From contig CBDCJV010000002.1 of NCBI GenBank assembly GCA_965217895.1, positions 3,808,001 through 3,872,000 of the forward strand: a stretch of DNA of 64,000 nucleotides. Reading direction: 5' to 3'. This document shows positions 11,980 through 18,549 of the stretch, one piece after another; within the stretch, counting starts at the first letter, position 1; each line of letters starts with the position of its first letter. The notes below the pieces were generated by a model. The model saw only the letters and a list, made by a program, of their open reading frames with translations, made no database searches and was not told the DNA's origin. The stretch comes from Waterburya sp. (GTDB lineage: Bacteria > Cyanobacteriota > Cyanobacteriia > Cyanobacteriales > Xenococcaceae). Both the position numbers and the translations under genes were made by a program.

Positions 11980-12315
11980 ATGAGCATCAGTAGCTTAGAA
12001 TTTGAGTTCGATCTATTATGGTCAGAATTATTTCCCGATTTAGATTTGGAAACAGAAGTACGGCTAATTCCCAAGCGTCGCTTTAAGTTTGATTATGTTA
12101 ATTTCTCTGCCAAGGTAGCAATCGAAATTAATGGACAAATTTGGCATCAAGGCGGACACACTACAGGCAAAAGCCTGATGCGAGATTATGAAAAGCTCAA
12201 TTTAGCGCAGCAACAAGGTTATTGTGTATTTCAACTATCGAAGGAAATGATTACCGAAACTTGGCTAAAGGCGATCGCTGATACCATTCGCGATCGCCTT
12301 AGTCAGCCAGCTTGA
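11980..12315 (+). CDS. Small Vsr/DUF559-like PD-(D/E)XK endonuclease
   Basis: E..RRFKFDY..VAIEINGQIWH..H..RDYEKLN pattern. Confidence 0.65.
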   Translation: MSISSLEFEFDLLWSELFPDLDLETEVRLIPKRRFKFDYVNFSAKVAIEINGQIWHQGGHTTGKSLMRDYEKLNLAQQQGYCVFQLSKEMITETWLKAIADTIRDRLSQPA

Positions 12316-16051: not shown

Positions 16052-16912
16052 TTGTTAATGATTAAATTATTAATAGTAGACGATCAAAATTTCACTAGGC
16101 AAGCATTACAGGCAATTTTAGAAACAGAACCAGATTTAGAAGTTGTTGGCAAAGCTGTTAATGGTAATGAAGCTTTTAAATACATGGAACAATTTCAGGT
16201 TGACATTATGATAGTTGACTTGGAAATGCCCGAAATGAGTGGTTTGACCGTAACCAAAATAACAAGTCAGCGTTTTCCCCAGACTAAAGTCATTATTCTT
16301 AGTAGTCACGACGACGAAGATAATATAAATGCAGCAGTCGAAGCAGGAGCAAAAGGTTATCTGCTCAAAAACACTTCGGCACAAGAAATTATTGATACAA
16401 TTCGGGCAATTCAAAGAGGCTATTTTCAGTTAGGGCCTGGACTATTTGAAAAGCTTCTTTCTCACCTAATTAAAGAAAAAGAACAGGCTGCTGATAATTT
16501 AGCTCAGCTTGAGGATAAATACGCACAGTCAATGATTAGGCTAGAAGAAAAGATACTTGCTAAAAATGAAGCTGAAAGGCAAGAGCTATACCAAGAAATT
16601 GAGCTACAAATTGCCAGTTTAAAACAAGATTTTCGTAAAGGTCTAGAAAATTTTCAATATCAGGTAAGCAATCAGCTACAAAGCGGGTTAAATGAGGCTA
16701 ATAATAGGTTTCATAGTTCTTTTCCTGACATACACAAAATTGAAATGCAAATAGATCATCGAAATGCAGAGCAGCAAAGATATATCAATACTTTATTTGC
16801 AGGAACTAAACAAGCTATATCTAAATTGGAAAAGCAAATAGAATTTACACGCCACTTTGTCATTTTTTTGAGCGTAGTATTTGTCATAGTTAACCTATTT
16901 CGTTTACGCTAG
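16052..16912 (+). CDS. Response regulator: NarL-like receiver, coiled coil and hydrophobic C-terminus
   Basis: IVDD, DLEMP and GAKGYLLK motifs; no HTH evident; likely start ATG at 16058. Confidence 0.8.
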   Translation: MLMIKLLIVDDQNFTRQALQAILETEPDLEVVGKAVNGNEAFKYMEQFQVDIMIVDLEMPEMSGLTVTKITSQRFPQTKVIILSSHDDEDNINAAVEAGAKGYLLKNTSAQEIIDTIRAIQRGYFQLGPGLFEKLLSHLIKEKEQAADNLAQLEDKYAQSMIRLEEKILAKNEAERQELYQEIELQIASLKQDFRKGLENFQYQVSNQLQSGLNEANNRFHSSFPDIHKIEMQIDHRNAEQQRYINTLFAGTKQAISKLEKQIEFTRHFVIFLSVVFVIVNLFRLR

Positions 16913-17020
16913 CTTTATTGGCAGGCATTTATATTTAAGATACCAACATTAACTTTTTGCCCTAACCTCTAACCTCTATCAAATCCATTTTATATTTAAT
17001 TACCCAACTCCTTCGGAGTT

Positions 17021-17347
17021 AAGTAGCAGCCGCGTGGAGCGGCTCGACTTTCCTTCGGAAAGGCGGCGAACTCCAGTTCGCGCAGATAGCAATTAAGAAA
17101 AACTCCGAAGTTGGTAATTGCGCCTCTTCATTCATGAGGAAAAGGTGAAAAAATAATTCAACTCTTGAATACATGCGGGCAAGCCCTTTGTCTGACACAG
17201 GAGCTATCGCTCCATGTCGTCGTCTTCGACGACTTTGCAAGCTTTGCTTGCTGTGGCAGAGGTTGAACTTGCAGACGCGAAGCGCGTCTCGCCGTTGCGG
17301 AGCAACGTCGGCAGCCTCCAGGCTGCGCTACTTGTTATCTGCTACTT
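17021..17347. mobile_element. MITE-like element filled with triple-hairpin cassettes
   Basis: Right end TTGTTATCTGCTACTT; left end becomes AAGTAGCAGATAGCAA once 17026-17081 is removed. Confidence 0.65.
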
Positions 17348-17382
17348 GTGAAACCTACCCACTTATAAACACTTTCTAACAA

Positions 17383-18549
17383 TTAATTTCTAATTTGGAC
17401 AGGCATTACGAGGTAGGTCATATTTAATCCTCCCAGAGGTGTAAAGATAACTGGTTGATTCCACTCGTTTAACTGCATTTTAATTTCTGCTGCGGGAAGT
17501 GCTTTTAGTCCGTCCATTAGGTATTTAATATTAAAAGCGATGTCTATATCTTCGCCGATAATTTCTGCAGGTAAAGTCTGTTTGGCATTACCTATATCCT
17601 GAGCATCCGCTGAAACTATCAACTCTCCCTGGTCATTATTGATGCTAAATTTGACCAAGTTATTTTTTTGCGCCAGTACTGCTACTAGTTCTAGACTACT
17701 CAGCAATCTTTTGCGATCTAAAATAATTTCACGGGTAAAACTATTTGGTATTAATTGTCCGTAGGCAGGATAGTCTCCTGGTATATTTGCACTAGTTAAC
17801 AGGCGATCGCCCAATTCAAAAACGATTATCTGTTCATCAAAGCTAACCCTCACTAGATCTGTTATTTGAGAATCACCCACAATTTTTTCTAGTTCTCGCA
17901 ATGCTTTGGCAGGAATGGTTAAGGAAAATTCGGGTAAGGTAATTGCTGATTCTGAAGCTTCAGAATTGAGATCGGCTGCCACCACTGCTAAACGATGACT
18001 ATCAGTAGCAGCAAATTCAAGTATATCTCCTTGATTATCCGCTCCTAAACCCTGAGTTTTAAGATGTACTCCTGTAAGCACCTGTTTGGATAATTCTGTA
18101 GAGGCAGCAAATAGGCATCCTCCTAATCCCTCGTTGAGTGCTGAAATAGGTAATTCTATTGTTTTTCCAGATTCTACGGTGGGCAATTCGGGAAATTCGC
18201 TGGCTTCAATTCCCGCTAGCTGAAATTGTCCTGATGCGGAACTGATCGTGGCGAGACTTGTTTCGTCTTCAGGAACATCTAGAGTAATCTCCATTTCTGG
18301 TAAACGAGTTACGATATCATTTAAGAGTTTGGCTGGTAGGGTAATACTGCCACCTTCGATAACTTCGGAGCTAAAGCTCGTTTTGATACCCAAGCTGCCA
18401 TCAAAAGCAATAACGCTAACCTTTTGCGTTGTTTCTATTGCCTCAAGCAAGACATTTCCTAATACTGCGGGTTCTGGACGAGAAGGAACGGCACGGCTGA
18501 CTAGAGAAAGATTATTTTTTAGATCGCTTTGACTACAAACAATTTTCAT
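17383..18549 (-). CDS. dnaN: DNA polymerase III beta clamp
   Basis: AATDSHRL and YLVMPV motifs; directly downstream of dnaA. Confidence 0.97.
   Translation of the reverse strand: MKIVCSQSDLKNNLSLVSRAVPSRPEPAVLGNVLLEAIETTQKVSVIAFDGSLGIKTSFSSEVIEGGSITLPAKLLNDIVTRLPEMEITLDVPEDETSLATISSASGQFQLAGIEASEFPELPTVESGKTIELPISALNEGLGGCLFAASTELSKQVLTGVHLKTQGLGADNQGDILEFAATDSHRLAVVAADLNSEASESAITLPEFSLTIPAKALRELEKIVGDSQITDLVRVSFDEQIIVFELGDRLLTSANIPGDYPAYGQLIPNSFTREIILDRKRLLSSLELVAVLAQKNNLVKFSINNDQGELIVSADAQDIGNAKQTLPAEIIGEDIDIAFNIKYLMDGLKALPAAEIKMQLNEWNQPVIFTPLGGLNMTYLVMPVQIRN

Follow-up and report, generated by a model that had tools for sequence, protein, structure and literature searches.

Three-hairpin cassettes of 53-55 nt in Waterburya stand in place of target bases: proposed movement as folded single strands of DNA

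We propose, at a probability of roughly 55%, that the two small cassettes carried by a miniature element in our window (the whole stretch of 64,000 nt analysed here, part of a 5.2-Mb chromosome of 39% GC) belong to a family of 53-55-nt three-hairpin units that usually replace five target bases and would move as folded single-stranded DNA, swapped in by a putative trans-acting enzyme reading their shape. The cassettes are dispersed, self-nesting, structure-conserved units that replace target bases, and good comparative evidence argues that the family is mobile. G000 denotes the genome containing the window, other G-numbers denote genomes of the genus and L-numbers individual loci. The parts of the locus are as follows:

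16052..16912, plus strand: flanking response-regulator gene (PF00072).
16936..17003, plus strand: left part of the outer repeat that the host has entered (length about 80-95 nt).
17000..17003, plus strand: TTAC target tetranucleotide of the host, equal to the IS608 left cleavage site in the passages of PMC5934647 drawn on here.
17004..17352, plus strand: the host, a 349-nt non-autonomous IS200/IS605-type miniature element with 25 chromosomal copies, ending in TGAA.
17021..17093, plus strand: left heptamer array of the AAGTAGC type, split by cassette 1.
17028..17081, plus strand: three-hairpin cassette 1 in the host's left heptamer slot, with linkers CGA..GCG on the plus strand.
17171..17191, plus strand: 21-nt single-hairpin dispersed repeat of SDR size inside the host, apparently replacing about 3 target bases.
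17197..17254, plus strand: a three-hairpin insert of another kind, whose linkers differ and whose ends are AC..TGT, in the host's right hairpin loop.
17273..17326, minus strand: three-hairpin cassette 2 in the host's right slot, with linkers CGA..GCG on the minus strand.
17327..17348, minus strand: right heptamer array, in inverted orientation to the left array; the 'TIR' of the sequence-only reading.
17353..17365, plus strand: right part of the outer repeat.
17383..18549, minus strand: flanking dnaN, the DNA polymerase III beta clamp (PF00712, PF02767, PF02768).

The cassette pair lies between the convergent genes for the response regulator and dnaN. The outer repeat, which has a heptamer run inside and seven intact paralogues, contains the host and the host contains the cassettes, so that nesting at this locus is three deep; contig-level data have a loose end at 17003, the border between outer repeat and host. 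The host is absent next to dnaN in close relatives, and the response-regulator gene and dnaN lie far apart in G019, G020 and G023, so that the interval 16912-17383 coincides with a rearrangement breakpoint. Elsewhere in the window (11980-12315) a 111-aa ORF without Pfam match resembles, by eye, a small endonuclease of the Vsr/DUF559 type.

The window had earlier been read, from its letters alone, as holding two 54-nt strings with 6-bp stems, loops of 5, 3 and 4 nt, 3-nt linkers and GC flanks, and all of these are present at 17028-17081 and 17273-17326. Their geometry, then called identical, agrees between the two in stems, loops and linkers, but the middle arm together with its linkers is inverted from one cassette to the other (CGA..GCG against CGC..TCG), whereas the outer arms keep the same polarity. 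As single-stranded DNA each cassette adopts a four-way junction that the flanking GC/GC closes, with fold scores of z = -4.0 and -3.7. The arrangement is not due to chance, as had also been claimed: a descriptor for perfect triple hairpins, in which loops (3-6 nt) and linkers (2-4 nt) were left free, matched 48 loci on the chromosome and a single one in ten dinucleotide-preserving shuffles taken together, and the search against a shuffled background that the sequence-only reading had suggested accordingly gave matches far above it. The 3/3/3 linker geometry, CGA...GC(G/C/T), is shared by 47 of the 48 loci even though the descriptor left the linkers free.

A relaxed scan of G000 retrieved 53 copies in 25 flank contexts, clustered at about 40 loci, none of them within a long gene except for spurious overlapping frames. 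Beyond this genome, matches to the linker pattern numbered at least 50 in G444, 32 in G019, 19 in G023, 10 in G440 and 9 in G020, while the reversed control gave 0-5, and the scan of the genus genomes gave 56 matches in addition to those listed; by inspection among the matches listed, structured copies occur in at least 12 of the 39 genus genomes, with up to about 50 copies per genome. A linker-and-loop pattern applied to GTDB gave 9 structured sequences among the 67 matches listed (the other 58 being unstructured), all nine in cyanobacterial records titled Pleurocapsa, Waterburya, Hyellaceae or unclassified. The only match to a stricter pattern in 400 other genomes of the phylum was unstructured, this pattern missing variants because it requires TGGA/TCCA loops. 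Metagenome contigs contributed eight matches, two of them structured, and viral contigs two, both unstructured. Our literature searches, which covered few subscription papers, returned no description of a three-hairpin cassette family.

Comparison of filled with empty alleles revealed that the cassette takes the place of target sequence, 5 nt being lost in five non-periodic hosts and 6 nt in two, one of the latter resting on a single empty allele. All eight spacer classes listed for empty sites of the CCCTTGCGCC host (48 matches) are 5 nt long. A 5-nt spacer was found for the CCGCCGT host in 21 of 25 matches in G444, where 12 copies are filled, and in 36 of 46 over five genomes, these matches being counted by pattern and not each confirmed as the same host; for the GCGGTC host the figures are 10 of 11, against nine filled copies. 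The ATGCTCTC host and, judged from a single empty allele, the GGACGGAGC host also lost 5 nt. Where cassettes are inserted into one another, the loss is 5 nt in 8 of 8 resolvable cases (L045, L126, L130, L144, L157, L171, L181 and L200). In two of these the outer sequence could be read off intact copies, and in six it was deduced from the opposite arm or from a sister cassette; two further nested cases, L186/L188 and L190, are left out of the count. The clean insertion with GC on each side put forward previously finds no support, since 5 target bases, sometimes 6, are lost in non-periodic hosts and flanks other than GC occur; for the same two reasons neither a fixed GC core nor a 2-nt GC duplication holds in general.

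Several pairs of alleles in heptamer arrays have a filled form that looks like the empty form plus the cassette plus two duplicated bases. As array length varies, a 5-nt loss there looks just like a 2-nt duplication, in both window slots as well, and apparent short target duplications in such arrays can be artefacts of the 7-nt period. The same arrays explain the terminal inverted repeat once ascribed to the host: deletion of 17026-17081 does regenerate the quoted 16-mer, but the 16-mer is not a terminal repeat, the matching 16-mers being internal heptamer arrays of variable length, and a host 'TIR' was rejected. What remains of that proposal is a structure-conserved unit that appears to move as a block, and hosts free of it do exist, empty alleles having been found. 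In host paralogues the left slot is empty or occupied, in either orientation, by at least six cassette types; in the G019 host copies, a cassette other than cassette 2 fills the right slot; and at the exact position of cassette 2 a contig from an unrelated sample has five bases (depth 4, heptamer context).

Over the 74 distinct flank contexts of G000 and the fetched loci (25 in G000 alone), target preference is loose and two-fold symmetric, (G)C-N5-G(C), with C at -1 in 0.81 and G at +1 in 0.78. Complementarity between the flanks lies above permutation at positions 2, 3, 4 and 6 and not at 1 or 5, the contexts being non-independent; position 1 pairs in 52 of 74 (p = 0.098, not above permutation), and pairing is not obligatory. 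We envisage that the donor strand would fold into a three-armed junction that brings its own two ends together, while the target strand, often itself a short stem, would be nicked twice 5 nt apart; the cassette would be joined in as a new 'loop', completing the four-way junction, and replication would then fix the insertion. Later, template switching would keep the arms perfect while changing their sequence and inverting loops, and recombination between cassette copies would shuffle the arms.

The symmetry of the target could also reflect a duplex, in which a dimeric integrase or recombinase would cut with a 5-nt stagger and the overhangs would be trimmed as flaps, giving a deletion where a DDE enzyme gives a 5-bp duplication. 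This would suit not only the two-fold symmetric preference but also the 5-nt distance kept where the lost bases form a stem arm (L045, L130, L157 and the GCGGTC host). Nonetheless we hold it unlikely, given that the cassettes offer such an enzyme neither terminal inverted repeats nor fixed end sequences to read, that flank complementarity covaries beyond base frequencies, and that the IS110-like family of G000 was not found in G444, the genome richest in cassettes.

Exchange of a folded single strand, the reading we prefer, rests further on the anatomy of the cassettes. Pooled with the G000 copies and previously collected loci, the 80 regions fetched around listed matches yielded 160 copies that reduce to 95 unique cassettes of 53-55 nt, a set filtered at no more than two mismatches, which inflates its figure of 98% Watson-Crick pairs. 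A set of 87 rows without a filter on the outer arms is therefore the fairer test of pairing; 77 of these have at most one mismatch in both arms, and five of the remaining ten are split by a nested cassette. The grammar of the cassettes is G...C arm, CG-A/C, middle arm, G/T-CG, A...T arm, one outer arm beginning with G and the other with A, and the middle arm with its linkers occurring in both orientations. The stem columns are highly variable, and the 12 top covarying column pairs are all stem pairs. Among the 95 unique cassettes, loops are frequently inverted and the three arms are freely reassorted; distinct perfect stems number 25, 15 and 25 for the three arms, and 74 arm combinations occur. 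Arms with TGGA/TCCA loops are almost never found in G000 outside full cassettes, which argues for the triple hairpin as the unit of movement. Kissing between these loops was rejected as a requirement, the first loop being TGGA in 59 of 95 and the third TCCA in 51 of 95, with many copies carrying unrelated loops. Geometry is not strictly identical throughout, for in another 13 matches, missed by the main descriptor, the middle arm measures 11-17 nt (17 nt in ten).

Some alleles depart from this plan. Six in G000, of two cassette types, are collapsed, the left half of arm 1 being joined to the right half of arm 3 (G000:C2:2426692, 2547722, 4524050 and 4116237 among them). At L126, L144 and L157 in G444 the same 8-nt loop, possibly a scar or remnant, replaces five bases of the first arm on two different stems.

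The 28 stem mismatches show no excess of G-T on either strand (2 T-G, 6 A-C/C-A), and GNA/TNC triloops, which are stable in DNA, occur in 26 of 49 distinct middle arms, two observations that favour a DNA fold over an RNA fold. They bear on a route by retroposition, in which a nick would serve for reverse transcription of a cloverleaf transcript and 5 nt would be deleted through another nick lying upstream, a geometry known from R2 retrotransposons. The copy-and-paste behaviour of the cassettes and eight reverse-transcriptase matches in G000 are consistent with this route, and RNA has also been proposed as the vehicle of yeast mitochondrial GC clusters (in passages of PMC4478555). We consider it decidedly improbable, however, in view of the absence of G-U tolerance on either strand, the triloops in place of RNA tetraloops, the free inversion of loops and middle arm, the lack of a tail or of truncated copies, and searches with Rfam covariance models, which yielded no match for the cassette (best E = 1.3, far below gathering scores).

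Compensated stems had been offered as proof of selection. Perfect stems need not mean selection, since template switching makes compensated changes in one step, and the frequent loop inversions point to arm-copying by this process, which homogenises arms and inverts spacers according to passages of PMC8604942 and PMC8794818. Invariant linkers, end bases and size beside hypervariable stems are a better sign of selection or shape reading. Template switching as described in PMC8604942 also lends itself to a reading without independent mobility, in which a few ancient cassettes would be carried as hitch-hikers by miniature host elements and diverge where they stand through template switching and gene conversion. 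Many copies are indeed passive, about eight host copies lying within a multiplied ISAs1-like element, and in the CCCTTGCGCC host single compensated changes of the first arm form a chain from genome to genome. On the other hand, 74 flank contexts in unrelated hosts, eight self-nested insertions at different positions and a constant loss length demand repeated de novo insertions, and we regard hitch-hiking as very improbable. A functional structured RNA or terminator under host selection is hardly credible: all 40 G000 loci do lie outside long genes, spurious overlapping frames aside, and the window pair does stand between convergent genes, but the sites lack conservation (the host is missing beside dnaN in close relatives), there are no U-tracts and no G-U pairs, and copies interrupt one another.

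We know of no HUH reaction in which a double nick deletes the target. By analogy, an HUH (Y1 tyrosine) strand-transferase may tentatively be named as the most likely enzyme class, as HUH enzymes are known readers of single-strand hairpins (passages of PMC6006769). Profiles for PF01797, RAYT and IS110/IS110-like proteins were run across the 39 genus genomes, many of which are fragmented and related. IS200 TnpA was rejected, its PF01797 counts being unlinked to cassettes: G020 has cassettes and no match, G441 41 matches and no structured cassette. RAYT was also rejected as a partner, RAYT-like genes being present in 37 of the 39 genomes without co-distribution, and a cassette core was found at 0 of 30 fetched RAYT-like loci. 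The only PF01797 match of G000 comes from a split RAYT gene (G000:C2:2354803-2355253, followed by GTAG REPs), the nearest cassette being 20.6 kb away; G000 also has a solo tnpB at C2:1622127. Nor did IS110 or IS110-like proteins co-distribute with cassettes over the 39 genomes, and all three comparisons are weakened by the fragmentation and relatedness of the genomes. G000 encodes two divergent IS110-like proteins (406 and 441 aa) that only just pass Pfam cut-offs (G000:C2:2845708-2846925 and 3922319-3923521), one gene standing, by eye, directly upstream of a ruvB-like gene, and relatives or fragments occur in 24 of the 39 genomes. No autonomous parent with cassette-like ends around a gene was found in G000 or in three cassette-dense regions of G023, and contig-level data, in which rare forms are dropped, held no circle joint. 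Neither a circle nor a free strand was seen as an intermediate. The sequencing runs listed as holders included no RNA run, a result uninformative as to expression.

The host of the two cassettes has a biology of its own. Its 25 chromosomal copies measure 167-363 nt and their ends are not inverted repeats. In seven empty paralogues of the outer repeat TTAC is followed immediately by the right flank, the host having inserted 3' of TTAC with no duplication, and TTAC precedes all 15 host copies aligned without requiring it. In simple host copies AAAG and GAAT/CAAT stand at the foot of subterminal hairpins; AAAG was detected there by pattern in 9 of the 25 copies and by eye in three more, and is absent from the window copy. 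The right end is TGAA, with guide GAAT in 17 copies, CAAT in six, and another or none in two. Under what we take to be the pairing rule, only CAAT among these right guides fits the end TGAA, so that agreement at the right end is partial. The motifs at the hairpin feet of simple copies match the IS608 end motifs given in passages of PMC5934647. As for a cognate tnpA, G000 has no intact IS200 TnpA, only the split RAYT and the solo tnpB. About eight host copies lie inside the multiplied ISAs1-like element, whose family was judged by eye from ORF starts (G000:C2:192251, 1192706, 1715536, 1733512, 2375461, 2576446, 3173928 and 3594772); they differ in the left cassette and share flanks, which suggests conversion between copies.

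Two further micro-elements accompany the cassettes in this host. The 21-nt repeat of 17171-17191, of which a compensated stem variant is known, reaches up to 100 copies per genome; it has 24 pattern matches in G000 and is present in 31 of the 39 genus genomes. The second three-hairpin family (17197-17254), with AC..TGT(G) ends, replaces 4-5 bases in the loop of the right host hairpin; it also occurs at G000:C2:4855620, 1966406 and 2426626, and a relative occupies the left hairpin of other host copies.

The cassettes bear on how cyanobacterial micro-repeats without terminal repeats or a partner gene spread, untagged repeats of this kind being treated as unexplained in passages of PMC3733652 and PMC3116915. 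The fixed 5-nt loss is a sharp, testable signature of the family, the 95 unique cassettes with exchanged arms make up a natural variant library in which shape can be told apart from sequence, and intermediates and the enzyme can be sought in genomes with about 50 copies. It is tempting to speculate on a class of bacterial micro-transposons whose sole defining trait is a four-way-junction shape and which integrate by 'loop exchange', in which strand transfer would excise five target bases and ligate the folded single strand; the same machinery may move the 21-nt and the second three-hairpin elements, and may explain SDR repeats. If true, such a sequence-tolerant, structure-reading insertion reaction would be new biochemistry.

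Among known systems, integron attC sites are likewise folded single-stranded DNA read by shape. The likeness is one of analogy, for attC is one long hairpin that bounds gene cassettes and recombines without deletion. Unlike classical MITEs, the cassette has neither terminal inverted repeats nor target-site duplication; its ends, G...T / A...C, lie on separate hairpins, and target is deleted. Mitochondrial GC clusters and double-hairpin elements are small GC-rich palindromic mobile units with merger, shuffling and an unresolved mechanism; the clusters (passages of PMC4478555) differ in being organellar and in a putative target duplication. Likeness to IS200/IS605 derivatives is a matter of the host, with its TTAC target, absence of duplication and, less consistently, AAAG or GAAT/CAAT at hairpin feet (compare passages of PMC5934647), whereas the cassette itself lacks a fixed target tetranucleotide or guide and removes target bases. 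With REP/REPIN sequences and their RAYT, as portrayed in parts of PMC6006769, PMC3116915 and PMC3733652, it shares an intergenic location, hairpins, non-autonomy and a single-strand logic, and one cassette arm has a stem identical to that of an abundant REP-like repeat in G000. The 5' guide tetranucleotide of REPs (GTAG type) is absent, however, from the flank logo of the 74 contexts, GTAG appearing only where the heptamer array supplies it, and the cassette differs further in its three arms, its target deletion and the lack of a RAYT gene link.

The SDR repeats of Nostoc (SDR4, SDR5 and SDR6), reportedly described by Elhai et al. in 2008, are said to measure 21-27 nt, to have a conserved secondary structure with compensatory changes, and to lie in heptamer arrays and mini-transposons or nested in themselves. 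Going by this description, the cassettes and the SDRs, their nearest known kind, are both very small, non-coding, cyanobacterial and without a known enzyme, and the cassette has the compensated structure, the embedding in heptamer arrays and mini-transposons and the self-nesting; with 53-55 nt and three shuffled arms it exceeds the SDR size, which is that of the 21-nt element at 17171-17191. The cassette occurs outside Nostocaceae, unlike SDR-like repeats, not found there according to passages of PMC5861425, and it loses 5-6 nt at non-HIP1 targets whereas the insertion of SDR5 is precise, falling between bases 3 and 4 of HIP1 (PMC4390886, in part). Our comparison suggests that the cassette family may work like SDR repeats, but as a larger unit with a distinctive target-deletion signature.
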